Below are positions 11,211 through 63,634 of a stretch of 64,000 nt of DNA, piece after piece. The position numbers and the translations under genes are program-made. Numbering within the stretch: the stretch's first letter is position 1; each line of letters begins with the position of its first letter. Below the pieces are notes generated by a model. That model was not told the DNA's origin and ran no database searches. It saw nothing but the letters and a program-made list of their open reading frames with translations. Origin of the DNA: Candidatus Pacebacteria bacterium UBA6180 (GTDB taxonomy: Bacteria > Patescibacteriota > Microgenomatia > UBA1400 > PJMF01); the NCBI GenBank assembly GCA_002422165.1, contig DITQ01000002.1, forward strand, positions 13,174 to 77,173, given 5' to 3'.

Positions 11211-11573
11211 ATGGTGCAATCGGTAGAGGCAACTACAAAACAGATGAGTCATGAACTAATGGCTTATGTTATTAAAAAAGAGTTAACTGATAAATTTGGC
11301 AGTATTGGAGGAGCTTCTGCCGCTAATTCTATGGCTCGTGCATTAGAGCTATATATAAGTGCTCGTACATTAGAGAGGCAATTGGCTGATGTACCTGAAG
11401 ATGAACGCCCAGATCCTTCTGGGAAAAAATCTAAAGCCGAATTGCTAAAAGAGCTAAAAGCTGGCATTGTTGAAACAGGTTACGACTTTAATGGTTTAAA
11501 TAAAAAATTTGGACAGTACATTGACGGTGACTTGACAAAAATTGGCAGAATTATTTCTGGCATAGCCGAATAA
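11211..11573 (+). CDS. Hypothetical small protein, AT-rich gene (about 38% GC)
   Basis: 120-aa ORF between nrdJ and PBP gene; no motifs; composition differs from flanking genes. Confidence 0.35.
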   Translation: MVQSVEATTKQMSHELMAYVIKKELTDKFGSIGGASAANSMARALELYISARTLERQLADVPEDERPDPSGKKSKAELLKELKAGIVETGYDFNGLNKKFGQYIDGDLTKIGRIISGIAE

Positions 11574-19842: not shown

Positions 19843-20929
19843 GGATGTGAATCTTTCTCCGGTTTTCTTCCTGGTTAAAGTCAAGAGTGACGATGGGGGT
19901 TTGTGGCGCGAAGCTGAGCCACTGAGCAATTTGCGAAAACCACTCGATGACCACGACATTGTTTGGTTGCACTAGACTTGGGATGTCAAGTAGATTCAAT
20001 TCCTCCTGACTTTCAATTTTCCAGACGTCGAGGTGATAAAATTTGCCGCTAGTTTGCAAACGAGTGTACTCGTACTCATTAAGGTAAGAATAGGTGGGCG
20101 AACTAATGGTTTCCTTGATATCCAAGAATTTGGCCACGCCTTTGGCGAAAATAGTTTTACCCATGCCTAGGTGGCCGTTGAGGGCGAAGACCAGACCACT
20201 TTTTTGTAGCTGATTGAGGTGATTGAGCATCAAGCGCCCAGCTAAATCGAGAGTTTCGTTTTCATTTTGACTCCAGAGAGTTTCTCCTTGGTTATCGTTG
20301 AGTGAGCCACGCAGGGCGATTGGCGTGGAGAGAGTGGTGTCAACGACCACCGAGGGTTCGTTTTGTGGCAATTCGCCAACATCGATAATCAGATCGATCA
20401 GGGATTGTTGTTTGGCAGATAAATTGTTCAAAACATCGTTGACAGTGTGTGGGCGTTTTTTGCCTGAGGCATTGGCCGAAGTGCTAGTGATGGCCCTTCC
20501 AAATTTGGAAACCAAATCGGTGATTAGTGGATAAGCAGGGATGCGAATACCCAGAGTGCCAAACTCAGAATTGACTCGTGGATCGACGAGGTTTTTGCTT
20601 CGTGAGACGACGGTGAAAGGTCCAGGCAGGAAATTTTGGTAAAATTTCTGTGCCTGGTCGTTGATTTCGACGTATTTGGCGGCCATAGCTTGGTCGCTGA
20701 CGGCGATCGACAGTGGTTTACCTTCACGTCGTCCTTTGTAGCGTAGTAATTTGTCGATGGCGGCGGCGCTCTCTGCATCTGCCCCGATGCCGTAGACGGT
20801 TTCAGTTGGATAGATCAGCAAGCCGCCTGCTTTCAGGCACGCCACCGCCTGTTCTAGCGCCAGCGCACACTGTTTCTGGTCATTGATGTCGAGTTTAATG
20901 ATTCGCATTTCCAAAACATATGTTACCAT
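19832..20929 (-). CDS. Fusion protein: threonylcarbamoyl-AMP synthase (TsaC/YrdC domain) + tRNA t6A ATPase TsaE (YjeE domain)
   Basis: N-terminal YrdC motifs (LIYPTETVYGIGADA, KGRREGKPLSIAV, TSANASG, PSVVVDTT); C-terminal TsaE motifs (NGHLGMGKTIFAKGVAKFL P-loop, SPTYSYLNEYEY, FYHLDVWKI, VVVIEWFSQ). Overlaps tsaD start by 11 nt. Confidence 0.7.
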   Translation of the reverse strand: MVTYVLEMRIIKLDINDQKQCALALEQAVACLKAGGLLIYPTETVYGIGADAESAAAIDKLLRYKGRREGKPLSIAVSDQAMAAKYVEINDQAQKFYQNFLPGPFTVVSRSKNLVDPRVNSEFGTLGIRIPAYPLITDLVSKFGRAITSTSANASGKKRPHTVNDVLNNLSAKQQSLIDLIIDVGELPQNEPSVVVDTTLSTPIALRGSLNDNQGETLWSQNENETLDLAGRLMLNHLNQLQKSGLVFALNGHLGMGKTIFAKGVAKFLDIKETISSPTYSYLNEYEYTRLQTSGKFYHLDVWKIESQEELNLLDIPSLVQPNNVVVIEWFSQIAQWLSFAPQTPIVTLDFNQEENRRKIHIHER

Positions 20930-24072: not shown

Positions 24073-24146
24073 GTGAGCTAAATTGGGATTTAATAGAGAA
24101 TCTTTTGTTGACGTAGTCGTGTTTTTTTGCTGAATTTACTTGAAAG

Positions 24147-24220
24147 TAGCGGGACTGAGATTCGAACTCAGGACCTTCGGTTTATGAATCCGATGCTCTA
24201 ACCAGCTGAGCTATCCCGCC
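24147..24220 (-). tRNA. tRNA with CAT anticodon (elongator Met or lysidine-modified Ile2); CCA not encoded
   Basis: Reverse complement GGCGGGATAGCTCAGCTGGTTAGAGCATCGGATTCATAAACCGAAGGTCCTGAGTTCGAATCTCAGTCCCGCTA folds as cloverleaf (7-bp acceptor with G1-U72, GTTCGAATC T-arm, anticodon loop TTCATAA); one A-A mismatch at 31:39. Confidence 0.6.
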
Positions 24221-24309: not shown

Positions 24310-24378
24310 CGCGGGATAGTGTACGGTGCACGTGGGGCTCATAATCCTACAGGCTAGGTTCGACTCCTAGTCCCGCAA
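24310..24378 (+). tRNA. tRNA with CAT anticodon, candidate initiator tRNA-fMet (C1-A72 mismatch, CGCGGGA acceptor like E. coli tRNAfMet); short 3-bp D-stem; CCA not encoded
   Basis: CGCGGGATAGTGTACGGTGCACGTGGGGCTCATAATCCTACAGGCTAGGTTCGACTCCTAGTCCCGCAA; T-arm CTAGG-TTCGACT-CCTAG; anticodon loop CTCATAA. Confidence 0.55.
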
Positions 24379-24518
24379 CAATCAACCCATGATCAAATCA
24401 AAATTTAAATTCCTCGTGACTCACTCCACTTCTTCTTGCTCCTAAATTTGCTGGATGCCGTATTTTCCCAGCTGCACCACGTTTTTCAATAAATATTACC
24501 GTGAAGAAATAGGAAAAA

Positions 24519-25130
24519 ATGAACATTATATTTGATTTAGATTCAACGTTGACGACTATAGAAGGAATTGATGAGCTTGGAGTAATGAAAAATCTCCAAG
24601 AACGCATAACCACACTTACAAATAAAGCCATGAGTGGGAAAATTCCACTTAGTGAAGTTTTTGAAGAGCGATTGTCAATTTTAAAACCGACTCAAGATGA
24701 ATTGTCACTCATAAGTGAACTTTATTTAAAAAATATTACGCCATACGCAAGCGAATTAATAAGAATACTCAAAAAAAAGCATAGGGTTTTTATTGTTACT
24801 GGTGGTTATGAAACTTGCGTGCTCCCAGTAGCCAAATATTTAGAAGTTGATCGTATATATGCAAATAAAATTATTTTCAACCAAAAAGGGGAGTATGTTG
24901 GGCTAGATAAAACGATTCCACTGTGGAGAAATGGTGGAAAAGGAGAAATAGTGCAGCTGATCAAAAAAACTTATCCAGGGCAAAGTATGATGATAGGCGA
25001 TGGTTTCAGCGATCTTGAAGCTGGTGCCGACAAGTTTGTGTGTTTTGCAGGAGTAATGCAGCGAAAAGAAGTGATGAAAGAGGCGGATCACATCATCTAT
25101 GATTTACGAAAAGTTCTTAATTTTGTGTAG
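24519..25130 (+). CDS. HAD-superfamily hydrolase, phosphoserine-phosphatase (SerB)-like; AT-rich gene
   Basis: Motif I FDLDSTLT, SerB-like ERITTLTNKAMSGKIPLSEVFEERL, motif IV GDGFSD; AGGAAAA RBS; about 35% GC. Confidence 0.6.
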   Translation: MNIIFDLDSTLTTIEGIDELGVMKNLQERITTLTNKAMSGKIPLSEVFEERLSILKPTQDELSLISELYLKNITPYASELIRILKKKHRVFIVTGGYETCVLPVAKYLEVDRIYANKIIFNQKGEYVGLDKTIPLWRNGGKGEIVQLIKKTYPGQSMMIGDGFSDLEAGADKFVCFAGVMQRKEVMKEADHIIYDLRKVLNFV

Positions 25131-45919: not shown

Positions 45920-46174
45920 ATGCATACAATAAACGTATCTTTACCTTCCAAACTGAAATCTCAAGCTGACGATATGGTCAAGGCTGGCTATTACGCTTCA
46001 TTCAGCGATCTGGTTAGAACTGCCCTTCGTCAGACCTTATCAGAAATCAACCTCGAAGCTCTGGCTGGTCAAGCCGTCAGAGAACATCAGTCTGGTCAGG
46101 CTTTGATTTTACATGATAGTCAAGATGTCGACACCTACTTGGATGAAGTTTTTGATAAGGATAAAAATAAATGA
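45920..46174 (+). CDS. Type II antitoxin, ParD-like ribbon-helix-helix protein
   Basis: INVSLPSKLKSQADDMVKAGYYASFSDLVRTALRQ resembles ParD (..V.SG.Y.SASEVIR.ALR..). Stop overlaps toxin start (ATGA). Confidence 0.6.
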   Translation: MHTINVSLPSKLKSQADDMVKAGYYASFSDLVRTALRQTLSEINLEALAGQAVREHQSGQALILHDSQDVDTYLDEVFDKDKNK

Positions 46175-46428
46175 AGTTGGTTGTTTCTGCACATTTCCAT
46201 AAATCCTTAATCAAGCTATCTGTCAAAAATTCCAAATTAAAAAAACAAATTTCTAAAACCTTAAAATTACTGACGACTTCTCCGCACCATCCCTCTTTGC
46301 GTCTTCATAAATTATCAAGCAAAAATGATTACTCTGTCTCGGTCAATATGAGTATCAGAATAATTTTGCGTTTCGTCGGAGAAGATATCTATTTACTTGA
46401 AATTGGTTCTCATGACGAAGTCTACTGA
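46171..46428 (+). CDS. Type II toxin, ParE/RelE-family
   Basis: 85 aa, basic; C-terminal IRIILRFVGEDIYLLEIGSHDEVY matches the RelE/ParE C-terminal signature; about 35% GC. Confidence 0.6.
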   Translation: MKLVVSAHFHKSLIKLSVKNSKLKKQISKTLKLLTTSPHHPSLRLHKLSSKNDYSVSVNMSIRIILRFVGEDIYLLEIGSHDEVY

Positions 46429-46486
46429 AGGTGCATATTTACATTTTTTCTGCTATAATAACCCTTAGCTTGTTTAGTTAGGGAGA

Positions 46487-46516
46487 AGGACTGTTGAGAG
46501 ACAAGTCCTTTTTTTC
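46487..46516 (+). terminator. Rho-independent terminator after the toxin-antitoxin pair
   Basis: AGGACT-loop-AGTCCT followed by TTTTTTT. Confidence 0.45.
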
Positions 46517-46558
46517 TTAGCAAAAGCGTTTTTTAATAAAATTAGAGAAAGAAATCTT

Positions 46559-47824: not shown

Positions 47825-49309
47825 ATGCTACAAAAAAGAGCGCCAATCATCACCATCATGGGTCACGTCGATCACGGCAAGACTTCGCTCTTGGATTTTA
47901 TCCGCAGCAGCAAGCTGGCTGCGCGTGAAGCTGGTGGTATCACTCAGCACATCGGGGCTTATCAGGTCGAGTTTGCTGCCCAAAAAATCACTTTCATCGA
48001 CACTCCTGGTCACGCTGCCTTCAACAAAATGCGTCAGCGTGGCGCCCAGATTACTGATCTGGTGATTTTAGTGGTGGCCGCCAATGACGGTGTTAAACCC
48101 CAGACCCTCGAATCGATTCGTTTCATCAAAGAGAGTCAAGTGCCTTTCATCGTGGCGATCAACAAAGTTGATTTGCCTGATCTTCACCTAGAAGTGGTTA
48201 AAGGTCAGCTGGCCGAAGCTGGCGTGCTACTGCAAGAATATGGCGGCGATGTCGAAGCGGTGGAAATTTCTGCCAAAACTGGTCTAGGTGTCGACAAGCT
48301 GCTCGAAACAATTGTCGTCATGGCTGACCTACTTGAGCTGCAGGCTGATCCAGCCGCTCCTCTCGAAGCAGTGGTGATTGAATCTAGCAAAGAAAAGAAT
48401 AAAGGTTCGGTGGCCCGCGTCATCGTGCGCTCTGGCACCCTGCAAGTGCGCCAAGAGCTCATTGTCGATGAGATTACTGGCCGCGTGCGCTTGCTGGAAA
48501 ATGAACTTGGTCAAGCGCTGACGCAAGTTTTGCCAGGTGAGCCAGCGCAAATCATCGGTCTGGACGAAGCCCCTGAAGTAGGCAGCGTCATTCGTGACAA
48601 GAATGCCAGCTACGAGGCTGATCTGACCGCCGAATTTAGTCGCACTGGTGAACTAGAAAAATCTTTCCGCCTAAGTGAGGAAATTAATTGGGAAAATGTC
48701 GATCTCGACGTCATGCTCGGGGATCGTGAGAAAATCAAGCTGATCGTCAAAGCTGACGTCAAGGGCACTCTCGAAGCGATTTTACAGAGTTTGGACCGCG
48801 ACAGCGTCGATGTCATCGCTTGTGGGGTCGGTCAAATCACCGAACAGGACATGGAATTGGCTCGCGATGGTAAAGTTTTATTGATCGCTTTTAACCTCAA
48901 AGTTAGCTCTACCCAGAAGAAACAAGCCAAAAACTTGGGGGTCAAAATCAAAGAATACAACATCATTTATCACTTGATTGAAGATTTGCAGCAGAGCATG
49001 CTCAAGCTGATGGATGCCACTTTTGACGAAGTGGTCACCGGCGAGGCGGAAATCCTGCAAATTTTCGACATGAAGGGCGAGACCATTGCTGGCGTGCGAG
49101 TGCGCACCGGCGAGCTGAAGAAAGCTGATCTTCTCCACCTCAAGCGCGGCGACGACATCATCGCCAACCCCGTTCTCAAATCCATGAAGCACGGCAAAGA
49201 AGACATCGACCGCATCGGCCCCAAAAACGAAGGCGGCCTGACTTTCAAGAACCGCAAGCTCGATTTCCAAGTTGGCGACGTGATTGTGGCGTATAAAAAG
49301 GAAAGTTAA
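47825..49309 (+). CDS. infB: Translation initiation factor IF-2, short form starting directly at the G domain (494 aa)
   Basis: RAPIITIMGHVDHGKTSLLD G1 motif at residues 5-24; DTPGH, NKVD; C-terminal beta-barrel domains. Confidence 0.9.
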   Translation: MLQKRAPIITIMGHVDHGKTSLLDFIRSSKLAAREAGGITQHIGAYQVEFAAQKITFIDTPGHAAFNKMRQRGAQITDLVILVVAANDGVKPQTLESIRFIKESQVPFIVAINKVDLPDLHLEVVKGQLAEAGVLLQEYGGDVEAVEISAKTGLGVDKLLETIVVMADLLELQADPAAPLEAVVIESSKEKNKGSVARVIVRSGTLQVRQELIVDEITGRVRLLENELGQALTQVLPGEPAQIIGLDEAPEVGSVIRDKNASYEADLTAEFSRTGELEKSFRLSEEINWENVDLDVMLGDREKIKLIVKADVKGTLEAILQSLDRDSVDVIACGVGQITEQDMELARDGKVLLIAFNLKVSSTQKKQAKNLGVKIKEYNIIYHLIEDLQQSMLKLMDATFDEVVTGEAEILQIFDMKGETIAGVRVRTGELKKADLLHLKRGDDIIANPVLKSMKHGKEDIDRIGPKNEGGLTFKNRKLDFQVGDVIVAYKKES

Positions 49310-49457
49310 GTTTTTAGTTCTTTGTTCGAGCCTCTGTTTTTAGTTTTTAGCTGAATTTTTTTTGGAGAAGCTTCTCCCCCCCACAAACATAACAAAGTAT
49401 CTCAAAAAGATTCATTTGCAATTCTGCTGTTTGACTCGACGGGGATATTGTTTTTAA

Positions 49458-52124
49458 ATGGAGATAGGTAGTTTAATTTGGAAAGAAATTATGTCAGAAA
49501 TTCAAGCTTCGCAAACACAGGTAGATGAAATAAAAACATCCATAAAAAATGCTTTACCGAATACGGGGGCATTAGGAATGAATGATCGTTTACAAGGATT
49601 GGTTGCTAGCAATGAGCGTGCTTTTGCTTTGGGTAGATTTAATAAATCAGAAAAAATTGGCGTGGTTGGAGACATGGAGGACTCCTTGAATTTCTGGGCT
49701 ACCGAGCTTGGTTTGACTCAAGACAGTAAAGAATTAAAAGCTTTTTCTAAATTTTTAAAACAAAAAGGAGCTAAAGAAGCATTTAAGTTAGTTACTGATC
49801 GCGAAATGACTGGTAAAAGCAAAGAAGATCAAGCTGAATTTATGTCTGCTGGTATGGAAAGTCTCAAAGAAATGGTGTCAACTCTGATGGAGATTAAAAG
49901 TGAGTCTAATAGTTCTCCTGAAATGGAACAAGAACTTGCTGAACTATGGCAAAACTTCTTAAATGGCAGTGAAGCTGATCGCAAGGCAATTCGTGGTTTC
50001 ATTAAAGAAGCTAGTAAGGCTAAGAGAGAAGCTTGGACCAATCTTAAAGAATTGCATAAGAGTCAGGAAGATTTGGATAAAGCTAATAAATTTAGATCTA
50101 GAGCTGATCGTGTTAAATCATCCAAAGATCCAGATAAGTATCGATTTACTTCTATGGCTGGAGGTCCAGTCCGCAAACTTTTATCTATTATGAGCCGTTT
50201 GCCTGGAGCAGTTCCAAGGAGATTTGTGGAGATGTTTAGCAGTTCAGATAAAAATGATGAGAATTACGAAATGAATTTGTCAGTTGAGTTGAGAGCAAAG
50301 ATTTTATCTTCCGGTGACACTGCGAGAGTTTTAAGTATGTGGAGAGATGGTGTTTTAAGCACTAATGAATTAGGAGATTTAAGAAAAAAAATGATTGCTG
50401 AAATGGCTACAGATAGTATGTCCAATCCTTTAACTCCAGAGGAAAAAACTGCTTTGGAAAATAACGAAGAACTAGGTAGATATCAAAAAGAGGGTGTTTT
50501 TATAAGTGTAAGTAGAGATGTGCAGGCAAAACACTTTCAAGAATATTTCCAGGAGAAGCAAGACGTCGCTTTGGAACAATACACCAAGGCTCAAGATAGA
50601 TATCTTGGCTTTAGTTTTGATAATGCTTCAAATTGGCAGAAAATTTTAGCTGCTGGCGCAGTGGAAATCGATCTTGTTTTACCAGAGTGGTTTAAAGAAC
50701 TTACCGTACCCATGGCTGATACTCTTGGAAAAGGAGTTTTAACTTTGGGAGAAGATATCGGTAAAGAAGTCGGATTTATTGTCGATAATATGGAAGGCAT
50801 GATTGCAGGAAGTGCTTTGGAAGATTTGAGTTCTACCACAGTAGCCAGAGAAATGGCGGTAGAAAATCTTCTTGCTTTACTTAATTCTGTAGATGGAGAG
50901 AATGATCCAAAAGAGGTTGCTAAAGCAGCTGAAATTTTACGTGGGGCTGAGGCTGCAATGGCCAGAACAGCCATGATGGTGGCGAGAGCTGTTGATACCG
51001 TGTCGATTACTGAAGGTAAAGGTTTGGCTTTATCAGCGGTTCTTTCTCCAATCGAATTAGCTGAAGCTGGTTTAGATGCTGCCACTGGCGGAATTATGTT
51101 CAGAGAAAACGCCTTAAAAATCCTTAAAGAGCTCAAAGATAGAACTAAGAAATTATTGGATGGAGATGGCGCACTTAAAGATGCTGCTGTTGGACTAGCT
51201 AGTGAGGGCAACATTAAAAAGAAAGAGTTAGCCGAAAAAGCGCACAAAACTGAAGCCAACTGGTTTGATGGTAAGGTTGTGGAGGTTGGTGTTCCAGAAC
51301 AGTATATGGATAGAGACACCATGAACGAACACATAAATAAAACCATTTTTTCTAGAATGGCTGAAAAATTAAGAAGTGCTATGGGTCCTGAAACTACTCT
51401 GGCTAAAAAGAGTCAAGTTTGGAGAACTCTAACAATAGGAAGCAAGAGGCAATCTGTTGAAGAAGTTTCTGAAGCAACTTCTACTAGACGTCAAGAAGCT
51501 ACAGTCGGTGTTGAGTATCTGAAAGAAAAATTGAAAGAAGTTGTTGCTGGAGCTGAGAGAGCTAATCTAGCTGCCCAGGAAGCTACATTAATTTCTCTAA
51601 GAGAAGCACAGAGAAAATTTACTGGTAGTGAGCTTAAACAAATTTCTGAAAGAGCAAAATTAGATAAGATGTGGAGAGATGTTTTTGCTCTTGGAGCAGG
51701 AGCAGCCGCTGTGGCTTTAGCTGCTACTGCCGCGGCTGGTTTAGATGCTGTGGCTGGCAATTGGGTAGATGTTGCCGGATCACATTTAAGTAAAGTATCA
51801 GAACAATTAAAAGTAATGAAAGAAGGCATGGTTGAGATTGCAAAAATTGCTAAAGAAGCTGGTTTGCCATCAGCAGAAGCTGGTGGTAATTGGGATGTTT
51901 GGTTGAAGCAAGTATTTGGAGTTGAGCTTGGAACACTCAATTTAAATGCGGCAGAAGCAGCTAGAGATTATGCTCCTGGTGTCAAAACAGTTTTAGTAGG
52001 AGTCTTAAAAGCTGTTCCAATTTTGGCGGCATTGAGAAGTTCATGGAACTTAATTCCTGGTAAAGCTAGAGCATTCACTGACTTTATGGGTGCTAGCAAA
52101 GTTGAAGGTGTTAACGTAGTATAA
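49458..52124 (+). CDS. Large (888 aa) predicted all-alpha-helical hypothetical protein with two Ala/Gly-rich hydrophobic segments near the C-terminus; AT-rich gene
   Basis: K/E-rich helical sequence without recognisable catalytic motifs; hydrophobic hairpin-like segments VFALGAGAAAVALAATAAAGLDAVAG and VKTVLVGVLKAVPILAAL; about 36% GC versus about 52% in infB. Start could also be the ATG at 49491. Confidence 0.5.
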   Translation: MEIGSLIWKEIMSEIQASQTQVDEIKTSIKNALPNTGALGMNDRLQGLVASNERAFALGRFNKSEKIGVVGDMEDSLNFWATELGLTQDSKELKAFSKFLKQKGAKEAFKLVTDREMTGKSKEDQAEFMSAGMESLKEMVSTLMEIKSESNSSPEMEQELAELWQNFLNGSEADRKAIRGFIKEASKAKREAWTNLKELHKSQEDLDKANKFRSRADRVKSSKDPDKYRFTSMAGGPVRKLLSIMSRLPGAVPRRFVEMFSSSDKNDENYEMNLSVELRAKILSSGDTARVLSMWRDGVLSTNELGDLRKKMIAEMATDSMSNPLTPEEKTALENNEELGRYQKEGVFISVSRDVQAKHFQEYFQEKQDVALEQYTKAQDRYLGFSFDNASNWQKILAAGAVEIDLVLPEWFKELTVPMADTLGKGVLTLGEDIGKEVGFIVDNMEGMIAGSALEDLSSTTVAREMAVENLLALLNSVDGENDPKEVAKAAEILRGAEAAMARTAMMVARAVDTVSITEGKGLALSAVLSPIELAEAGLDAATGGIMFRENALKILKELKDRTKKLLDGDGALKDAAVGLASEGNIKKKELAEKAHKTEANWFDGKVVEVGVPEQYMDRDTMNEHINKTIFSRMAEKLRSAMGPETTLAKKSQVWRTLTIGSKRQSVEEVSEATSTRRQEATVGVEYLKEKLKEVVAGAERANLAAQEATLISLREAQRKFTGSELKQISERAKLDKMWRDVFALGAGAAAVALAATAAAGLDAVAGNWVDVAGSHLSKVSEQLKVMKEGMVEIAKIAKEAGLPSAEAGGNWDVWLKQVFGVELGTLNLNAAEAARDYAPGVKTVLVGVLKAVPILAALRSSWNLIPGKARAFTDFMGASKVEGVNVV

Positions 52125-52142
52125 AAATATTTAGGAAAAATT

Positions 52143-52535
52143 ATGAATAATCAAGATTCCAGCTCTTTTTTGTCTTTGCTACATGAAGTACTTAGGCACT
52201 CTTCCGCTCCAGAGGAAAAATTAAATCACTTTTTTACTTTGTTAGATCAGGGAGATTATTCTGCTATTTCTCAGGAGGAGGCTGCGGAGATGACTGAATA
52301 TTTAGAAGAAGCAGGCAGTAAACTTGATCAAATGGTTTTGGAAAGTAGAGATATAGAAAAAATTAATAATCTAACTGATTTAAAAGAATTTACTAATAAT
52401 TTACTAAATGAGTCTGAAAGAGGAGCATTGGAATTTGTTTTGAATAGTGCTAGTTCCAACACTCGATCTTCATCAGCTAGAGATGGCAAGTGGCTTTTGG
52501 ACAAACTTGCTGGCCTTATAGAAGACGAGGAATAG
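52143..52535 (+). CDS. Small (130 aa) highly acidic hypothetical protein, AT-rich gene
   Basis: AGGAAAA RBS; D/E-rich (predicted pI about 4); no motifs; 18 nt downstream of the 888-aa gene. Confidence 0.45.
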   Translation: MNNQDSSSFLSLLHEVLRHSSAPEEKLNHFFTLLDQGDYSAISQEEAAEMTEYLEEAGSKLDQMVLESRDIEKINNLTDLKEFTNNLLNESERGALEFVLNSASSNTRSSSARDGKWLLDKLAGLIEDEE

Positions 52536-52643
52536 CTCCTCTGGCTTTTTTCTATTATAGGTTCTATAATACCCACCTATATCAATTAATGCTTACTTTA
52601 CTCATCCGGTAGAAGCACTGGGGAGTCAAAGGCGAAAGGAATT

Positions 52644-52913
52644 ATGGCATTAGCAAAACAAAGTAAGGCTTCAATCATCAAGGATTTCGCGCTTTTTGAA
52701 GGCGACACTGGATCTCCAGAGGTACAGGTTGCTCTTTTGACTGCGTCGATCGAGCAGTTGACTGAACATCTCAAGCTCCACAAGAAAGACAACCACTCGC
52801 GCAAAGGCTTGCTCAAGCAAGTTTCCAAGCGCCGTCGTTTGCTCAATTTCTTGCTCAGCCGTAGCGAAGACCGCTACCGCAAGTTGATTGAGAAGTTGGG
52901 GTTGAGCAAATAA
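52644..52913 (+). CDS. rpsO: 30S ribosomal protein S15
   Basis: Canonical S15 sequence (..[23 protein letters not shown]..). Confidence 0.9.
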
Positions 52914-52937
52914 GCTTTGCAAAATCAAAGAAATTGA

Positions 52938-52967
52938 AAAGGCAGGTTTTAGAACCTGCCTTTTTTT
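52938..52967 (+). terminator. Rho-independent terminator after rpsO
   Basis: GGCAGGTT-TTAG-AACCTGCC followed by TTTTTTT. Confidence 0.6.
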
Positions 52968-53180
52968 GTGCTATAATATCCCCATATCAATTAAGAAACT
53001 CCAAGGAGGAGATCCTAGAGGATTCCAAAAAGACGAGAAATTTGCCGCAGTCTGGCCAAAAAAGCGCCAAGCAAGCAGAGCAAACCGCTTCTCTTCTTTT
53101 CAGAATACTCGGCTCTCCACTTAAGTTTCAGCAATCGCCCCGCGCTTCAAAAGTAGCAGCAGGGCAAAGAAAGTACAAAT

Positions 53181-55517
53181 ATGTCTTATCCCAAGTATGG
53201 AAATACTTATAAGAAAGATCTCGTCGTGGGCGATAAAGTCATCCAGATCGAGGTTGGCAAATTTAGTGAGCAGGTTTCCGCTGCAGTCCTCGCCACTTGT
53301 GGCGAAACAGTGGTTCATACCACCGTCGCTCTCGGCCGCAAAGTCAACCTCGGCTACTTCCCCCTCTCGGTGGAATTTGCTGAAAAACTCTATGCCGGTG
53401 GCATTATCAAAGGTTCACGCTGGGTCAAGCGCGATGGTCGTCCGACTGATAACTCCATCCTGCGTGGTCGCGTGATCGATCGCACCATGCGCCCGCTGTT
53501 TCCTGACGGCATCACCAATGAAGTCCAGATCATCAGCACTGTTTTCTCCTACGATGGTGAAAATGAGCCTGATATGATCGCCCTGGTCAGCGCCGCTCTG
53601 GCCTTGCAAATTTCTGACATTCCTTTTGACGGTCCAGTCGCTGGCATGCGCCTGGGTCTTGACGAAAAAGGTGAGTTTTTGATCAATCCTACCCGCAGTC
53701 AAATCGAGAGCAACGATCTCGACCTGATCGTGTCGGCTTCCAAAAATTCGATCGTCATGGTCGAAGCTGGCGCCAAAGAAGTCGCCGAAGAGGTAATGAT
53801 CGAGGCTCTGCTCCGCGCTCAAGCAGAAGGCGCCAAGGTCTGTGAGCAGATCGAAAAAATTGCCGCTGAAATCGGCAAAGCCAAGGTTGAATTAGTCGAT
53901 GCCGTTGACCCAGAAGTCGCTGCCAAGAAGCAAGTTCTAGTTGCACGTCTCGCCAGTACTTACCAAAAAGAAATCAGCGATATGGTCAATAAGCAAGGCC
54001 GTCTCGAGCCTTTCGGCTTGGACGAGTTGATTGCCAAGATTTTAGAGGAAGATAAAGCCAAACTCGCTGAAGGCGAGGAAAGCGAACTCAGCGAAGGCAT
54101 GCTCCACAGCATTTTCCACGACTTGATGAAAGACGAAGCTCGCCGCATGATCATCGAAGACGAAGTTCGTCCTGATGGTCGCAAGACTACCGAAATCAGA
54201 CCGATTTGGTGCGAAGTTGACTTGCTGCCTCGCGTCCATGGTTCGGCCATGTTCAAGCGCGGAGCCACTCAAGCTCTAACAGTGGTGACTCTAGGTGACC
54301 CATCTCTTGGTCAGCTAATCGAAGACATGGCGGGTGAGAAAACCCACCACTACTTCCATCACTACAACATGCCGCCTTACGCTTCTGGTGAAGCTGGTCG
54401 CTTCGGTTTCCCCAAGCGCCGCGAAATCGGTCACGGGGCGCTCGCTCAGCGCGCTATCGAGCCGATGTTGCCTAGCCAAGAAGAGTTTCCTTACACTATC
54501 CACGCGGTGAGCGAAATCATGAGCTCCAATGGCTCGACTTCCCAGGCTTCGGTTTGTGGTTCGACCATGGCCTTGATGGCTGCCGGTGTCCCACTCAAGA
54601 AGCCAGTGGCTGGTATCGCCATGGGCCTGATGTCGGATGGTGAGAAATTTGTCATCCTTTCAGATATCCAGGGCTTGGAAGATCACGTCGGTGACATGGA
54701 CTTCAAAGTCGCGGGTACTAAAGAAGGCATTACCGCTATCCAGATGGACATCAAGCTCAAAGGCATTCCCAAGGAAGTCTTAGTTAAGGCTCTTGGTCAG
54801 GCTCGCGAAGGCCGTTTACACATCATGGCAGAAATGATGAAGTGCATCAGCGAACCTCGTACTTCCCTGAGTCCTTATGCGCCAAAGGTTGCTCAGATGA
54901 CTATTCCTGCTGAGAAAATCGGCGGCGTCATCGGCTCTGGTGGCAGCGTGATCAAGGACATCATCGAGAAGTCAGGTGCTGAAGTCAACGTCGACGAAGA
55001 CAAAGAGAAAAAGATCGGCATCATCAACGTTTCTTCGCCAGACCAAGCCGCGATCGATAAGGCTATGCAGATGATCGAAAACATCGTCCGCGAAGTCGAG
55101 ATCGACGATGAGTTTGACGGCATCGTCACTCGCGTCGAAGGCTACGGCATGTTTGTCGAATTCCTACCAGGCCGCGAAGGTTTGGTCCACGTCTCCAACA
55201 TGTCCAGCGACTACGTCAAGGACGCCAATGACCTCTACAAGGTCGGCGACAGCGTTCACGTCCGCGTCAAAGAATACAATCCAGAAGGCAAAATTGCCCT
55301 AACCATGCTTAGTAGTGAGCAAGAGGCTGAGCAAAAAGCCGCCCGAGCTTCTCGCGGCGAAAGCGACGATAATGGTCGTGGTGGCCGCGGCGGTGATCGC
55401 GGTGGCTACGGCGGCGGCAGACCTTCCTACGGTGGCCGCGGAGGCAGTCGTGGTGGAGACCGCAATGAGCGACGCCCCTTTGGTGGACGCGGTAATGGTG
55501 GAGGAAGAAGGTTTTAA
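53181..55517 (+). CDS. pnp: Polynucleotide phosphorylase with about 60-aa Arg/Gly-rich (RGG/GGR/YGG) C-terminal tail
   Basis: Two RNase PH domains, KH and S1 domains; tail RGESDDNGRGGRGGDRGGYGGGRPSYGGRGGSRGGDRNERRPFGGRGNGGGRRF. Confidence 0.95.
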   Translation: MSYPKYGNTYKKDLVVGDKVIQIEVGKFSEQVSAAVLATCGETVVHTTVALGRKVNLGYFPLSVEFAEKLYAGGIIKGSRWVKRDGRPTDNSILRGRVIDRTMRPLFPDGITNEVQIISTVFSYDGENEPDMIALVSAALALQISDIPFDGPVAGMRLGLDEKGEFLINPTRSQIESNDLDLIVSASKNSIVMVEAGAKEVAEEVMIEALLRAQAEGAKVCEQIEKIAAEIGKAKVELVDAVDPEVAAKKQVLVARLASTYQKEISDMVNKQGRLEPFGLDELIAKILEEDKAKLAEGEESELSEGMLHSIFHDLMKDEARRMIIEDEVRPDGRKTTEIRPIWCEVDLLPRVHGSAMFKRGATQALTVVTLGDPSLGQLIEDMAGEKTHHYFHHYNMPPYASGEAGRFGFPKRREIGHGALAQRAIEPMLPSQEEFPYTIHAVSEIMSSNGSTSQASVCGSTMALMAAGVPLKKPVAGIAMGLMSDGEKFVILSDIQGLEDHVGDMDFKVAGTKEGITAIQMDIKLKGIPKEVLVKALGQAREGRLHIMAEMMKCISEPRTSLSPYAPKVAQMTIPAEKIGGVIGSGGSVIKDIIEKSGAEVNVDEDKEKKIGIINVSSPDQAAIDKAMQMIENIVREVEIDDEFDGIVTRVEGYGMFVEFLPGREGLVHVSNMSSDYVKDANDLYKVGDSVHVRVKEYNPEGKIALTMLSSEQEAEQKAARASRGESDDNGRGGRGGDRGGYGGGRPSYGGRGGSRGGDRNERRPFGGRGNGGGRRF

Positions 55518-60128: not shown

Positions 60129-60584
60129 ATGAAAATCTTTATTGGCAGTGATCACGGTGGTTTTGCCTTCAAAGCAGAACTGCAAAATTATCTAGCGGAC
60201 AGGCACCCGGAATTTGAAGTGCAGGACTGTGGAGCTTTTCTGCTCGACCCAAGTGATGATTATCCGCCAGTTGCTTTACAGGTGGCACAGAAAGTGGTTG
60301 TATCAGCAGGTAGTTTGGGTATTTTGCTTTGCCGCTCTGGTTCAGGGATGGTGATTGCCGCCAACAAAGTCAAAGGCGTGCGCGCCGTGGAGCTTTATGA
60401 CATTCGCGTCGCCAAGCAAGCCAAAAGCCATAATCACGCTAATGTAATTGCTCTTGGTGGTGATTATTTGACTCTAGAGAAGATAATTGAGATCTTGGAG
60501 GTTTTTTTGCAGACTGATCTCGACCAAGATGCGCGCCACAAGCGTCGATTAAGTCAGATTAGCGATTACGAAAATAATAATTAA
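60129..60584 (+). CDS. rpiB: Ribose-5-phosphate isomerase B (RpiB/LacAB family)
   Basis: MKIFIGSDHGGFAFKAELQNYL..., catalytic Cys region LLCRSGSGMVIAANK. Confidence 0.8.
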   Translation: MKIFIGSDHGGFAFKAELQNYLADRHPEFEVQDCGAFLLDPSDDYPPVALQVAQKVVVSAGSLGILLCRSGSGMVIAANKVKGVRAVELYDIRVAKQAKSHNHANVIALGGDYLTLEKIIEILEVFLQTDLDQDARHKRRLSQISDYENNN

Positions 60585-60608
60585 CTTGAAGAAAAGAAAA
60601 AGGAAATC

Positions 60609-61295
60609 ATGCAGTTAGATGTAACCGCCAATGTTTTGACTGGTGATTTGAATTTAGCGCGTCGCCAGATCGAATTGGCCAGAGAGAGCAAGCTTCTGCC
60701 AGCGATTCAGATCGACATCGTCGATGGGGTTTTTGCCGACACTCATACCTTTACCCCTCAGGATTTAGTTGACATTGATTTCGGCGAGTTGCAAATCGAT
60801 TTTCACTTGATGACCGAAGAACCGATGGATTACGTCTGGGAAATGGAAGAGTATTGTCGCCATTTGCCGATTCGCTCCGTTTTTGGTCAGATCGAGAAGA
60901 TGTCCTATCAGGAGGCCTTTCTAGAGGAAGTCAAAAAACAAGATTGGCGGGCTGGCTTAGCACTCGACTTGTACACTCCTCTCGAGGCTATTGATGATAA
61001 TAGTTGGGACTGGATGGATGCGCTGCTGCTGCTTGGGGCCCCAGCTGGCGAGTCAGGTCAAGAATTGAATCCGCTCATCTTTGAAAAAATCCAAGCTGCC
61101 AGAGAAAAAATCCTCAAAGGTGAGCCAATGCGTATTTTCGTAGACTGTGGAGTTAATAAAGATAATGTTGCCAAACTGCAGCGCGCTGGTGTCGACAGTG
61201 TTACGGCCAATTCAGCTTTTAATCAAGCCCCCAATTACAAGCAAGCAGTCGAGGAATTTCTCAGTAAACTTCTTCCAACACAAGAAATGAGTTAA
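60609..61295 (+). CDS. rpe: Ribulose-phosphate 3-epimerase-like protein (diverged)
   Basis: IQIDIVDGVFADTHTFTPQ (cf. HxDVMDGHFVPNxTxG), DFHLMTEEPMDYV (cf. DVHLMVxxP), C-terminal RIFVDCGVN...VTANSAF (cf. DGGV...GA..VaGSA.F). Confidence 0.65.
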   Translation: MQLDVTANVLTGDLNLARRQIELARESKLLPAIQIDIVDGVFADTHTFTPQDLVDIDFGELQIDFHLMTEEPMDYVWEMEEYCRHLPIRSVFGQIEKMSYQEAFLEEVKKQDWRAGLALDLYTPLEAIDDNSWDWMDALLLLGAPAGESGQELNPLIFEKIQAAREKILKGEPMRIFVDCGVNKDNVAKLQRAGVDSVTANSAFNQAPNYKQAVEEFLSKLLPTQEMS

Positions 61296-61431
61296 TTTTG
61301 CTTAGATTTTGTGGCATTTTAACAGTTTCTGATGACGATAGTAGCTGTGACTACTTGAGGAAGAAGAAACATGTTAAAATGACGGAAAAGAAAGTAAAAG
61401 TAGCCATTTCTTGTGTTGGAAGAAGTCTATT

Positions 61432-62055
61432 ATGTCAAAAGATAAAAAAGTTCTCATCCCTAGGTCTAATCGTTTGTGCAAAATCGATAACATCGCCTTT
61501 TATGGTAGTGCCGATTTGGAACAAGATGATCCAGCTTACCACGAAGCCTACGAAGCAGCTAAGCACGTCGCCAAGCGCGGCAAAGTGGTTATCAACGGTG
61601 GCGGACCCGGCATCATGGAGGCCGCTACTAGAGGAGCTAAGGCTGGGGGAGGCAAAACTCTGGTGGTGACTTTTTATCCAGAAAATCTGCCAGAATTTGA
61701 GGGTCGTGATGACAACAATATCGCTGATAAGGAAATCAAAACCGCCAATTACATCGAGCGGATGTTTGGTTTGATGGATAATGCCGATCTCTTCGTCTGT
61801 TTCAAAGGTGGAACTGGTACTCTTAGCGAGTGGGCGACTGCTTGGCTTTTGGCTCATCTCTATTATGGCAATCATAAGCCTTTGATTCTTTATGGGTCTT
61901 TTTGGCGGGAGGTGGTGGACACTATTCACAAGCATTTCATGATTGGCTATAAAGAGGCGCAGGTTTATCGCATTGTCGAAAACCTCGAAGAATTTAAGGT
62001 AGCTTTGCGAATTTTTGATGAAGAGATGGCGGCGCGCCGCCTCAAAAATGGTTAA
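61432..62055 (+). CDS. LOG-family (TIGR00730, lysine-decarboxylase-like) nucleotide phosphoribohydrolase
   Basis: VINGGGPGIMEAATRGAKAGGG and FKGGTGTLSEWATAW (PGGxGTxxE) motifs; start at internal ATG 61432 (MSKDKK). Confidence 0.7.
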   Translation: MSKDKKVLIPRSNRLCKIDNIAFYGSADLEQDDPAYHEAYEAAKHVAKRGKVVINGGGPGIMEAATRGAKAGGGKTLVVTFYPENLPEFEGRDDNNIADKEIKTANYIERMFGLMDNADLFVCFKGGTGTLSEWATAWLLAHLYYGNHKPLILYGSFWREVVDTIHKHFMIGYKEAQVYRIVENLEEFKVALRIFDEEMAARRLKNG

Positions 62056-62132
62056 AAATAGTTGTAGTGGCAAGCGCCGCCACGCAACTCGTGTTAAGAT
62101 AAATACAATAAACAGAAAACATAACTGCCCTT

Positions 62133-63074
62133 ATGAGTTCCTACGACATTATTTCTATCGGTTCATCTCTTTTGGATATTTTTATCAAGTCTGATAATTT
62201 GGAAGCGAAGCGTGATGGTGATCGTCAAATTCTGACCTACGGAGAGAAGCATGAACTATCAGATTTTCAGATCTATACTGGCGGTGGCGCTAGTAACACT
62301 GCAGTAGCTTTTGCCAGACTTGGTTTGCATACAGCAGTGATTTCCGAGACTGGACGTGATGATTTTGCCAGTCTGATCACCGCCGACTTTCAGAAAGAAG
62401 GTGTAGCGACCAATTTGTTGATCCAGGAGAAATTGGAGCAAACCGGCGGCTCAGTGATTTTGGTTGGTAAAAATTCAGAGCGAGCTATTATGGTGCACCG
62501 CGGAGCGGCTTCAATGCTTGATCCTTTTGACATCCCAGCTTTTTGGTTGACCAAAAGCAAGTGGGTTCACCTTTCAAGTATTGGCGGACGCCTTGAGACT
62601 TTGCAGAAAATTTTCAAGGTTCTTGCTAACAACCAAGAAACCAAACTGTCTTGGAATCCTGGCAAGCGGGAATTGGAGCTTCTAGTCAATGAAAAATTTT
62701 CTATTGAAGATGTGCCTTGTGAAGTTTTTTTCGTCAATCAGGAAGAGTGGGCCGTGGTGGAGCCCTTACATGAAGAAATTCTGCTTAACTTCCCTCAAGT
62801 GATTATTACCAAAGGCAAGGCTGGCGGTGAGGTTCATCTCTTTGGTAAAAAGAAATTTGAATTTGTTGGTCAATCAGCTGTTTCAGTAGATAACACTGGA
62901 GCAGGTGATGCTTTTGCGGCTGGTTATGTCGCCGCTTTACTCAATGGTTACGAGGTGACGCAAGCTATCGCTTGGGGAGTTAAAAATGCAGCCAACGTGG
63001 TGGCTTATTTTGGCGGCAAGCTAGGCTTGTTGCGTAATTCGCAAATGTTGGAGTTAACAAAAAAGAAAAATTAG
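62133..63074 (+). CDS. PfkB-family carbohydrate/nucleoside kinase (ribokinase-like)
   Basis: N-terminal IISIGSSLLDIF, TGGGASNTAVAFARLG, C-terminal DNTGAGDAFAAGYV (anion hole/GAGD motif). Confidence 0.75.
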   Translation: MSSYDIISIGSSLLDIFIKSDNLEAKRDGDRQILTYGEKHELSDFQIYTGGGASNTAVAFARLGLHTAVISETGRDDFASLITADFQKEGVATNLLIQEKLEQTGGSVILVGKNSERAIMVHRGAASMLDPFDIPAFWLTKSKWVHLSSIGGRLETLQKIFKVLANNQETKLSWNPGKRELELLVNEKFSIEDVPCEVFFVNQEEWAVVEPLHEEILLNFPQVIITKGKAGGEVHLFGKKKFEFVGQSAVSVDNTGAGDAFAAGYVAALLNGYEVTQAIAWGVKNAANVVAYFGGKLGLLRNSQMLELTKKKN

Positions 63075-63112
63075 TGTTTAATTAGTAATTAGATTTGTAG
63101 TGGAATAAACGT

Positions 63113-63634
63113 ATGAAAAAATTTCTGTCCTATCTCCTCGCTGTGCTATTTTTCGCGAGTTCAGCTAGCGCAGCTCAAGCTGTTTTAGAATTAACTCAAA
63201 TTGGCACCACCGATCTAACGGGTCAAGGTATTGGTTCCACTGTTTCTGCTTATACTTACACGTTGCGTTCATTTAGTTTGTACGGTAATTCTACTGCCTC
63301 CAGTTCAGTATCGATCAAAATCGATGACGTCACCTATTCTGCCACTGCCAATGAAACTGGTGCTTGGTCGACTTATCTTTCCAATTTGACCTACGATGAT
63401 CATGCTGTCGAGGTTAGTTCTGCTGGTCAGACCAGTCTAAATTTTACCTTGAAGATTAGTTCTGCCTCAGCCACCCCCACAGCTACTCCTACCGCTGTGC
63501 CGTCAACAGAAACCAAGGGTGGCACGACCTCTTCGACTCTTCCTCAAGCTGGCGCACTAGAAAACACTTTTATTTTGGCTGCGATCTCGATGTTGTTAAT
63601 TGGTTTGGGTGTGACGATTAAATATCGCGCTTAG
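63113..63634 (+). CDS. Secreted surface protein with signal peptide, T/P-rich linker and sortase-like C-terminal sorting signal (LPQAG + hydrophobic helix + KYRA)
   Basis: Signal peptide MKKFLSYLLAVLFFASSASAAQA; ATPTATPTAVPS linker; TLPQAGALENTFILAAISMLLIGLGVTIKYRA. Confidence 0.5.
   Translation: MKKFLSYLLAVLFFASSASAAQAVLELTQIGTTDLTGQGIGSTVSAYTYTLRSFSLYGNSTASSSVSIKIDDVTYSATANETGAWSTYLSNLTYDDHAVEVSSAGQTSLNFTLKISSASATPTATPTAVPSTETKGGTTSSTLPQAGALENTFILAAISMLLIGLGVTIKYRA

Follow-up and report, generated by a model that had tools for sequence, protein, structure and literature searches.

The translocators of type III secretion are large helical proteins without a signal peptide that carry a hydrophobic hairpin and are encoded next to a small acidic partner, their class II chaperone (IpaB/IpgC, YopB/SycD). 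Pore-forming colicins (Ia, E1 and A) are long helical proteins with a C-terminal Ala-rich hydrophobic hairpin, and a small adjacent gene protects the producer. Phage tail tape-measure proteins are 800-1000 amino acids (aa) long and nearly all helical, with Gly/Ala-rich hydrophobic stretches. Two further systems serve as analogies. In Caulobacter, TipN/PodJ and PopZ combine a large helical membrane-tied cytoplasmic domain with a small acidic partner comprising a folded portion, a flexible linker and a terminal helix that is conserved. In Proteus mirabilis, IdsD/IdsE have adjacent genes and a strain-variable, type-defining region that lies at paired membrane-spanning segments and is exchanged. 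Here, we analysed a gene pair that resembles each of these systems in part. It lies between infB and rpsO in a 64,000-nucleotide (nt) stretch of contig DITQ01000002.1 from Candidatus Pacebacteria bacterium UBA6180 (the window, whose locus is denoted W), and consists of a large gene (BIG) and its downstream partner (SMALL). We found that the pair is very probably an old, native operon, maintained in a rare group of uncultured bacteria from lakes.

49491..52124, + strand: BIG, encoding an almost all-helical orphan protein of 877 aa (888 aa in the mechanical open reading frame, ORF, from 49458)
52143..52535, + strand: SMALL, encoding an acidic partner of 130 aa

In agreement with the initial annotation, these are two genuine, co-oriented and closely spaced genes, as the ORF list places them on the + strand at 49458..52124 and 52143..52535 with a gap of 18 nt. 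The 888-aa product given there corresponds to an existing ORF, but the real start of BIG is almost certainly the ATG at 49491, giving 877 aa, because the MSE N-terminus and ATGTCAGAA are kept in relatives and the ATG at 49458 overlaps a conserved −10 element. The homologue P0001 begins at the position matching this start (P-numbers denote BIG homologues and L-numbers related loci). Antisense ORFs are present within BIG at 50591-51346 (− strand, 251 aa) and 51491-51940 (− strand, 149 aa), with a similar one in L005 (6369-7178, − strand). They are most likely by-products of the stop-poor complement of a purine-rich coding strand, not genes.

The AT-richness first noted for the pair was confirmed by a windowed calculation. 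GC content was 0.50-0.55 in nusA/infB, fell to 0.35-0.42 over BIG and SMALL, and rose again to 0.51-0.55 in pnp, and GC at third codon positions (GC3) was 0.26-0.27 in the pair against 0.57-0.60 nearby. Gene by gene, GC and GC3 were 0.391 and 0.261 for BIG and 0.354 and 0.267 for SMALL, against 0.534 and 0.572 for nusA, 0.506 and 0.574 for infB, 0.478 and 0.600 for rpsO, and 0.532 and 0.580 for pnp. The coding-strand GC skew of the pair (+0.19 to +0.28) is the strongest in the window, and C occupies only 0.10 of third positions, against 0.31-0.39 in dnaK, nusA, infB and pnp. Synonymous choices were the reverse of those in the flanks (Arg AGA 0.70 against 0.06; Ile ATC 0.13 against 0.67; Leu TTA 0.42 against 0.08). 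Among the 59 genes of the window (mean GC3 0.46, standard deviation 0.087), BIG and SMALL lie about 2.3 standard deviations below the mean and rank with the five lowest, together with 11211-11573, 14110-14970 and 24519-25130. These three genes (+ strand) share the codon class of the pair (GC3 0.26-0.30, GC skew about +0.20 to +0.23); one encodes a HAD hydrolase and two have no Pfam family. GC content is about 45% over the whole window and falls to about 40% at other places too, so that the pair contrasts less with the whole genome than with its flanks.

A strong compositional contrast with the flanks, extending to AGA, ATA and TTA codons, would suit a recent genomic islet transferred into the nusA-infB/rpsO-pnp cluster, and horizontal acquisition was the origin proposed in the initial annotation. 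The distribution of relatives argues against it. A word-indexed search of 5.8 billion proteins returned only six BIG relatives (53-100% identity), the contigs of which all read nusA-infB-BIG-SMALL-rpsO-...-pnp-...-sodA; a repeat with a 15-sequence alignment as query yielded these six again and no others. When a single genome from each GTDB species was scanned, two bins from lake metagenomes (titled as from Loclat and LaPlata) showed the same order, and P0007, which is 42% identical to BIG and encoded in L007, again lies in an infB-BIG-SMALL-rpsO arrangement; a metagenome scan with a narrower BIG alignment returned only L007 again. The infB|rpsO site is thus occupied by the pair in five lineages (W; L001/L002/L003/L005; L004; L006; L007), and an empty infB-rpsO site was not found among the related lineages recovered.

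A hidden Markov model search of 1.84 billion cluster representatives extended the family to 12 BIG clusters of 789-926 aa, save for one 374-aa fragment, with identities down to about 20%. In each of 13 loci examined (13/13), a homologous acidic SMALL of 126-157 aa begins 7-21 nt downstream of BIG. Outside the infB|rpsO site the pair was found, in relatives of about 20-30% identity, in other chromosomal contexts (L008, L010, L012, L013, L015, L017, L019 and L020), including the following:

L008: BIG-SMALL between rplA and rplJ-rplL
L010: BIG-SMALL after trxA-trxB
L015: BIG-SMALL between an AAA ATPase gene and UDG-RNase J-ftsK, on a 300-kb contig
L017 and L018: BIG-SMALL between mltG and rpoB-rpoC
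L019: BIG-SMALL before a HEPN/nucleotidyltransferase pair
L020: BIG-SMALL after sodA-Fic

An all-against-all BLAST of neighbouring genes detected no third gene travelling with the pair. A Fic-domain gene is near it twice, between rpsO and pnp in L004 (7266-8309) and directly upstream of BIG in L020 (3326-4411), and this proximity may be a coincidence. Housekeeping proteins common to the window and the distant loci are 39-55% identical, which indicates that the pair spans a deep, sparsely sampled clade. A block of rpiB-rpe-LOG-pfkB plus a Big_13-like gene is also syntenic between the window (60129-63634) and L015 (3396-6779), at 34-55% identity; BIG-SMALL lies about 1.2 kb downstream of the rpiB-rpe-LOG-pfkB genes in L015 and about 8 kb upstream of the block in the window.

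Between the lineages sharing the infB|rpsO site, infB was 84-92%, nusA 86-93%, BIG 42-75% and SMALL 45-79% identical, so that BIG and SMALL diverge several-fold faster than neighbouring housekeeping genes and in parallel with each other. A ratio of nonsynonymous to synonymous divergence (dN/dS) of roughly 0.1-0.2 for both genes indicates that they are under purifying selection. Synonymous sites are saturated (synonymous divergence, pS, of 0.63-0.85). Consequently, the low GC3 cannot be a remnant of recent transfer, and the offset would be a maintained equilibrium. Four-point sums of the distances in the identity table gave the same unrooted grouping, ((W,L001),(L004,L006)), for nusA, infB, BIG and SMALL, and inheritance in place with fast evolution appears to be the simplest reading. 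BIG of W is 74% identical to that of L001 and 54% identical to that of L004, though the flanks of W are closer to those of L004. Transfer of the cassette from a low-GC donor was nevertheless rejected as the main story, given that nusA, infB and BIG share one unrooted grouping. The AT shift of L001 probably inflates its housekeeping distances, and some non-clocklike divergence of BIG remains after donor transfer is set aside.

The composition of the pair could also be followed across lineages. In L001, where the locus has 37% GC, BIG and SMALL are native in composition (GC3 0.24-0.26 against 0.20-0.34 in neighbours). The offset recurs in the mid-GC lineages, as listed below with GC3 values for BIG and SMALL.

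L004: pair 0.31/0.35; neighbours 0.47-0.60
L006: pair 0.35/0.27; neighbours 0.37-0.49 (excluding an adjacent toxin-antitoxin-like cassette)
L007: pair 0.28/0.25; neighbours 0.42-0.46
L008: pair 0.33/0.32; neighbours 0.37-0.67 (ribosomal-protein genes 0.58-0.67)
L012: pair 0.40/0.39; neighbours 0.55-0.66
L017: pair 0.36/0.38; neighbours 0.47-0.61
L019: pair 0.36/0.32; upstream gene 0.56, downstream HEPN/nucleotidyltransferase pair similarly low at 0.36-0.40

The coding-strand GC skew of BIG is positive even where that of its neighbours is negative (L017). AT-ending, C-poor codon usage is a trait of the family, and the GC3 of the pair lies below that of its neighbours in every mid-GC lineage. 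No flanking direct repeats and no integrase or transposase were found adjoining the pair, the nearest tRNA genes are about 25 kb away, and no relatives were found in 50,697 phage records (tblastn), 72,556 plasmids or a viral contig collection. An islet of recent date, which would have to reconcile one site shared by five lineages and saturated synonymous sites with an offset that is common to all mid-GC lineages and native in the low-GC one, and with borders lacking repeats, integrase and tRNA, is extremely improbable. BIG-SMALL is very probably a conserved native module. Deviant composition can hence persist as a characteristic of a gene family without signalling recent transfer, which calls for caution in GC-based island-calling.

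Two simple causes of the low GC3 were considered. Fast evolution alone was rejected because GC3 is 0.57-0.62 in hyp273 and sodA, which evolve just as fast. Low expression is weakened both by these fast-evolving, high-GC3 neighbours and by a conserved near-consensus −35 element upstream of BIG. Possible causes of the codon bias, all of them conjectural, are a shared pool of recombining alleles, selection that favours slow translation, and the avoidance of C-rich sites at which Rho would load.

By contrast with the infB|rpsO site, the dnaJ-nusA gap is a genuinely variable position. It holds a cassette at 45920-46428 (+ strand), in which an 84-aa gene is followed by an 85-aa gene with a 4-nt overlap (GC 0.41 and 0.33). 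The cassette is present in L006 at 66-67% identity, where the homologue of the 84-aa protein has a weak match to the antitoxin-like Pfam family RHH_8. L001, L003 and L005 carry two unrelated genes at this spot, one CDP-alcohol phosphatidyltransferase-like and one for a 181-aa protein.

We then asked what the proteins resemble. BIG is rich in Ala (12%), Glu (10%) and Lys (9%), its commonest residues being Ala, Glu, Leu and Lys, and has a pI of 5.5; sequence analysis detected neither Cys nor a signal peptide. Alignments, the conservation profile and the highest model confidence delimit a conserved body:

49758..51665, + strand: conserved body of BIG (aa 90-725)

The best-conserved blocks of BIG are aa 281-300, 421-460, 481-560, 601-660 and 701-740, and its invariant residues include R484-G485, G650-S651 and R721/L724/D725. 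A medium-confidence AlphaFold2 model built from 15 sequences (mean per-residue confidence, pLDDT, of 65; predicted TM-score, pTM, of 0.52) consists of some 35 helices with a single beta hairpin at aa 416-432; at its end, helices 688-790 and 793-854 are very long and run antiparallel to each other. A prediction with the six close homologues only reached a pLDDT of 34. Internal repeats were not detected by hhalign. At the DNA level, a 24-nt direct repeat (88% identical, + strand) links 51066-51089 and 51735-51758, which encode AGLDAATG in the body (aa 526-533) and AGLDAVAG at the end of the first hydrophobic segment described below; no domain-level repeat is detectable.

Searches placed neither protein. 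For BIG, no Pfam or NCBIfam pore-former or translocator matched at E <= 1 (W) or E <= 0.1 (six members), PHROGs gave nothing below E = 0.05, and PDB sequences were not matched by single-sequence or profile searches. Foldseek of the BIG model gave best values of E = 0.44 against the PDB and E = 0.08 against BFVD, with tape-measure proteins among the noise. Pfam, NCBIfam and PADLOC searches with BIG, SMALL and their homologues returned scattered single-member matches (E >= 0.0003), none common to members. The initial description of the large protein as a helical orphan thus holds, with a near all-helical model and no family or fold match.

These results set the pair apart from the systems named above. 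BIG has no sequence or fold similarity to type III translocators and no type III secretion genes are nearby; SMALL lies downstream and lacks a signal for the tetratricopeptide repeat (TPR), the defining feature of class II chaperones, and the BIG hairpin is C-terminal and marginally hydrophobic. The Pfam colicin model does not match BIG. Colicin immunity proteins are integral membrane proteins and colicin genes are plasmid-borne with a lysis gene, whereas SMALL is soluble and acidic and the locus is chromosomal and fixed, without plasmid relatives. Tape-measure proteins were the top non-significant viral fold matches (Foldseek E = 0.08-0.2, TM-score at most 0.16), but there was no PHROG match and there are no phage genes in any locus. 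The genes of TipN/PodJ and PopZ are not adjacent, their anchors are elsewhere, and BIG is modelled as many short helices instead of long coiled coils, this comparison being one of descriptions only. BIG-SMALL therefore appears, by sequence and fold, to fall outside the known kinds, which reflects an unclassifiable orphan family; no new mechanism is demonstrated. As a single locus the pair is of modest weight, since orphan pairs are common in uncultured small-genome bacteria and the roles of BIG and SMALL are conjectural. It is, however, conserved over deep divergence yet without a detectable relative in curated families, 350,000 solved chains or phage and plasmid collections.

One alternative is that BIG is secreted or translocated and acts as a pore-former or translocator-like effector, its C-terminal helical hairpin entering a target (host) membrane, while SMALL serves it as a chaperone in the cytosol. 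A large helical protein without a signal peptide, a marginally hydrophobic Ala/Gly-rich hairpin as in amphitropic pore formers, and a small acidic partner gene would all suit this role. However, no colicin, ClyA/Hbl, type III translocator, LXG or toxin family or structure was matched, no secretion-system genes adjoin the pair in any of the 13 loci (13/13), and an epibiotic lifestyle of the lineage is not established. The conserved part, moreover, is the body of about 725 aa, and the hairpin is weakly hydrophobic in most members.

The C-terminal part of BIG contains two hydrophobic segments with a variable stretch between them:

51675..51761, + strand: hydrophobic segment 1 (aa 729-757), Ala/Gly-rich, preceded by the invariant R-x-K-L-D-K-M-W
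51762..51968, + strand: hypervariable, probably recombining loop (aa 758-826), between the segments and at the far end of the modelled antiparallel helical hairpin
51969..52046, + strand: hydrophobic segment 2 (aa 827-852), with a basic stretch after it (R849, K858, R860)

Two Ala/Gly-rich segments had been taken at first as a membrane-inserting hairpin. Both are present, and segment 1 is hydrophobic throughout the close clade (Kyte-Doolittle 19-residue maximum 1.66-2.14 in 6/6 close homologues). Segment 2 is hydrophobic only in W and P0002 (1.8-1.85), with a weak family average, and across the family both segments would span a membrane marginally at best. Averaged over the family, net charge amounts to +1.3 ahead of segment 1 and +2.1 behind segment 2 (+2 in aa 841-860 of BIG), the loop being neutral to acidic, and the model sets the two segments side by side in the antiparallel long helices. 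This flanking positive charge, the missing signal peptide and the side-by-side placement suggest a hairpin anchor.

BIG diverges most in the loop. Close homologues are 54-85% identical in the body, but mostly 34-47% identical in the loop, two pairs being higher there at 62% and 75%. The BIG proteins of L004 (P0005) and L006 (P0006) are 82-98% identical over most of their length, but 46% and 37% identical in alignment columns 751-850. We compared both with P0003 in a mosaic test, the region boundaries of which had been fixed beforehand from the hydrophobicity analysis. In the body (aa 90-725), P0005 is 85% identical to P0006 and 59% to P0003; in the loop (aa 758-826), it is 37% identical to P0006 and 75% to P0003, and the stretch KMLEGLPKIIETAKEYGLPRAQAGAEKDI is identical in P0003 and P0005. 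Sites of P0005 matching only P0006 or only P0003 numbered 173 and 11 in the body, but 7 and 36 in aa 726-826 (Fisher p = 4e-25), and three other BIG triplets were also mosaic (p between 1e-7 and 1e-12). This switch of informative sites between the body and aa 726-826 indicates that a block of about 100 aa has, in all likelihood, moved between lineages by recombination, making it a recombining hypervariable segment. Of the horizontal acquisition first proposed, it is such exchange inside BIG that stands; insertion of the gene pair does not. Distances between BIG proteins (0.30-1.23) do not scale with those for infB (0.08-0.19), and neither do SMALL distances. Fast non-clocklike divergence and mosaicism in the hairpin region are expected of an interaction surface and would also suit an effector. 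The segment was considered as the target of a diversity-generating retroelement, and this was rejected for the locus, as no repeat of the variable segment was found within 48800-53200 and no ORF of reverse transcriptase size adjoins BIG-SMALL.

The behaviour of SMALL relative to this segment is informative. Between L004 and L006, SMALL is 77%, the BIG body 85% and the loop 37% identical, so that SMALL follows the body and not the loop. This argues against SMALL as the specificity or immunity partner of the variable part and fits a cytoplasmic partner of the body. It also separates the pair from IdsD/IdsE, in which IdsD is exported by type VI secretion and IdsE is a membrane protein, whereas here there are no type VI genes, SMALL is soluble and co-variation is lacking. 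The same lack of co-variation counts against a toxin-immunity or toxin-antitoxin pair, in which BIG would be toxic and SMALL would neutralise it. Adjacent large and small genes, an acidic small partner, tight spacing and rapid parallel divergence are features such a pair would show; yet BIG has no toxin domain and no variable C-terminal toxin module (its extreme C-terminus, NVV, is conserved in the close clade), defence and toxin libraries gave no match common to members, and the chromosomal position is fixed without mobility marks. The real small toxin-antitoxin-like cassette of this window, at 45920-46428, looks quite different and is variably present. We regard a toxin-immunity function as very improbable.

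SMALL is acidic as initially described, with a pI of 4.39 and a net charge of −16 (family pI 4.1-4.6). Its family consists of only 19 clusters, with lengths of 129-142 aa save for a 98-aa entry in which the gene of the window itself is annotated in truncated form, and neither the W protein nor its homologues matched any family in Pfam, NCBIfam, PHROGs or PADLOC. A helical-looking N-terminal part of about 100 aa is followed by a variable Ser/Thr/Asn-rich linker, a conserved C-terminal peptide and acidic residues, a layout that suggests a tethered docking peptide.

52491..52517, + strand: C-terminal motif W-L-L-D-K-L-A-G-L of SMALL (aa 117-125), with an acidic tail after it

Within this motif, L118, L119, A123, G124 and L125 are invariant in nine SMALL sequences that are 29-79% identical. 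In a profile search, aa 9-63 of SMALL had a borderline match (E = 0.004, 20 bits) to a 70-residue PDB chain named 'STI1 domain-containing protein'. STI1 domains can hold hydrophobic helices, and this weak similarity would favour a chaperone for an effector hairpin; but it lies below the detection of Pfam scans, which did not show it, and is kept as a lead only. Effector-chaperone and toxin-immunity functions, both raised in the initial annotation, thus found no positive support in family, fold, defence or toxin searches, and we consider the effector reading improbable.

We tentatively favour, at somewhat short of an even chance, a reading in which BIG-SMALL is an old lineage-specific operon for a membrane-associated helical scaffold with an exposed, diversifying hairpin and an acidic partner; the membrane topology and the scaffold-adaptor role are held a shade more tentatively still. 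The first 725 or so residues of BIG would form a cytoplasmic helical body, in keeping with the missing signal peptide and with the positive charge that flanks the segments on their body-facing side. The two Ala/Gly-rich helices would tie BIG to the membrane as a hairpin, and the loop of about 70 residues would project outward as a short two-helix stalk. There it might meet an antagonist or partner (phage, host or neighbouring cell), which would drive its diversification. SMALL would stay in the cytoplasm and bind the conserved body, probably via its invariant C-terminal WLLDKLAGL, and may act as an adaptor, regulator or holding chaperone produced in step with BIG. The exchange of a hypervariable segment of roughly 100 aa, bounded by hydrophobic helices, suggests that cells of little-known biology have here a surface for interactions that is under pressure. 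If the exposed-hairpin model is true, the locus would be a strain-typing marker and a lead to what these cells contact.

Several observations weigh against the membrane-scaffold proposal. Insertion energies, a crude estimate obtained as a rough position-independent sum, are +1.4 kcal/mol for segment 1 in W and +4 to +6 in distant members, and +4 to +10.5 for segment 2 nearly everywhere in the family; given these values, what is read as a membrane hairpin may instead be two Ala-rich helices buried within a soluble protein. For aa 735-860 the model reaches a confidence of only about 50. The fast evolution of the loop is also compatible with weak constraint, and while recombination is seen, diversifying selection is conjecture. 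Contact between BIG and SMALL is inferred solely from gene order, spacing and parallel divergence, no sequence or structural relative points to any function for BIG, and non-optimal codons alongside a strong-looking promoter lack an explanation.

The first of these points leads to a different view, in which BIG is a soluble cytoplasmic scaffold or enzyme tied to the gene-expression or RNA-turnover machinery, with its Ala/Gly-rich helices buried and SMALL as a subunit that regulates it or serves as adaptor. In favour of this, hydrophobicity of the two segments is marginal over the family as a whole, conservation is highest in the body, where the invariant Arg, Gly, Ser and Asp residues lie, and the neighbours in several lineages belong to this machinery (nusA-infB|rpsO-pnp, rplA...|rplJ-rplL, |rpoB-rpoC and |UDG-RNase J). 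In genomes that appear to be small with a high share of housekeeping genes, though, such neighbours are expected by chance; the contexts with trxB, Fic or HEPN/nucleotidyltransferase are unrelated to this machinery, and the pair has its own promoter. For a hypervariable, recombining segment whose flanking hydrophobic helices have positive charge towards the body, an exposed loop is the more typical case, and no nucleic-acid-binding or enzymatic family was detected. We consider a soluble scaffold doubtful on balance.

A further reading is that BIG-SMALL acts as a new kind of surface-type determinant, a conserved intracellular machine with a short exposed hairpin, the alleles of which predate the species in which they occur, persist under frequency-dependent selection through phage, host or neighbour recognition, and pass between lineages by recombination. 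This is rather unlikely; if true, a shared allele pool would explain AT-rich, C-poor codon usage independent of the resident genome.

Elements for expression of the pair were located as follows:

49388..49397, + strand: upstream box CATAACAAAG, in largely conserved columns of the infB-BIG spacer alignment of five lineages, about 35 nt upstream of the −35 element
49431..49459, + strand: promoter-like element (TTGACT 49431-49436, 17-nt spacer, TTAAAT 49454-49459)
49480..49493, + strand: ribosome-binding site and start codon, read from the sequence (GGAAAG 49480-49485; ATG 49491-49493)
52527..52551, + strand: weak terminator-like hairpin from a consensus scan (GAGGA-ATAGC-TCCTC, then TGGCTTTTTT), overlapping the SMALL stop codon

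TTTGACT does not vary among W, L001, L004, L006 and L007 despite saturated synonymous sites, with TTAAAT or TTTAAT as the −10 element, and the conserved leader ends in GAAAG-N-ATGTCAGAA in these five lineages. A TTGAC hexamer lies 46-67 nt before the BIG start in 10 of 12 loci examined, other genomic contexts included, and is usually followed after about 15-17 nt by a TA-rich hexamer. A generic promoter scan did not list 49431..49459, because its −10 element lacks an A at position 2. The pair thus seems to be transcribed autonomously, from a conserved sigma-70-like promoter of its own with a predicted start near 49466, and CATAACAAAG is a possible regulator site or UP-like element. Terminator-like sites are not more numerous than expected from shuffling, so that the hairpin at the end of SMALL is weak evidence. 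Downstream, a 12-bp hairpin at 52937-52964 follows rpsO, where an rpsO terminator or pnp leader structure is expected, and a 14-nt direct repeat CC(T/C)ATATCAATTAA occurs in the rpsO leader (52576-52589) and the pnp leader (52981-52994), both on the + strand.

It had also been pointed out that rbfA and truB are missing from their usual place at this locus. Indeed, phmmer with E. coli queries found no truB, rbfA or rimP homologue in the 64-kb window, with rpsO detected as a positive control, and no rbfA or truB in the related loci, although small divergent RbfA and RimP could escape such a search. In particular, the region upstream of nusA (46300-46558) gave no rimP with the E. coli query. The idea that SMALL is a divergent RbfA was rejected, as there was no Pfam RBFA match at E <= 1 (W) or E <= 0.1 (eight homologues) and phmmer with E. 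coli RbfA came back empty in the window.

Elsewhere in the window, the only RNA genes detected over 64 kb are two divergent tRNA-Met genes (CAT), 90 nt apart, at 24146-24220 (− strand) and 24310-24379 (+ strand); rRNA and other marker RNAs were not found. The t6A genes at 18691-20929 (− strand) are fused or extended: one 365-aa ORF carries Sua5/YrdC and TsaE domains, and the adjoining TsaD is 422 aa long with its domain starting at residue 63, the listed ORFs overlapping by about 130 nt. Finally, the C-terminus of pnp (55300-55517, + strand) encodes a long Arg/Gly-rich tail of PNPase (...GRGGRGGDRGGYGGGRPSYGGRGGSRGGDRNERRPFGGRGNGGGRRF), an RGG-like extension beyond the S1 domain.

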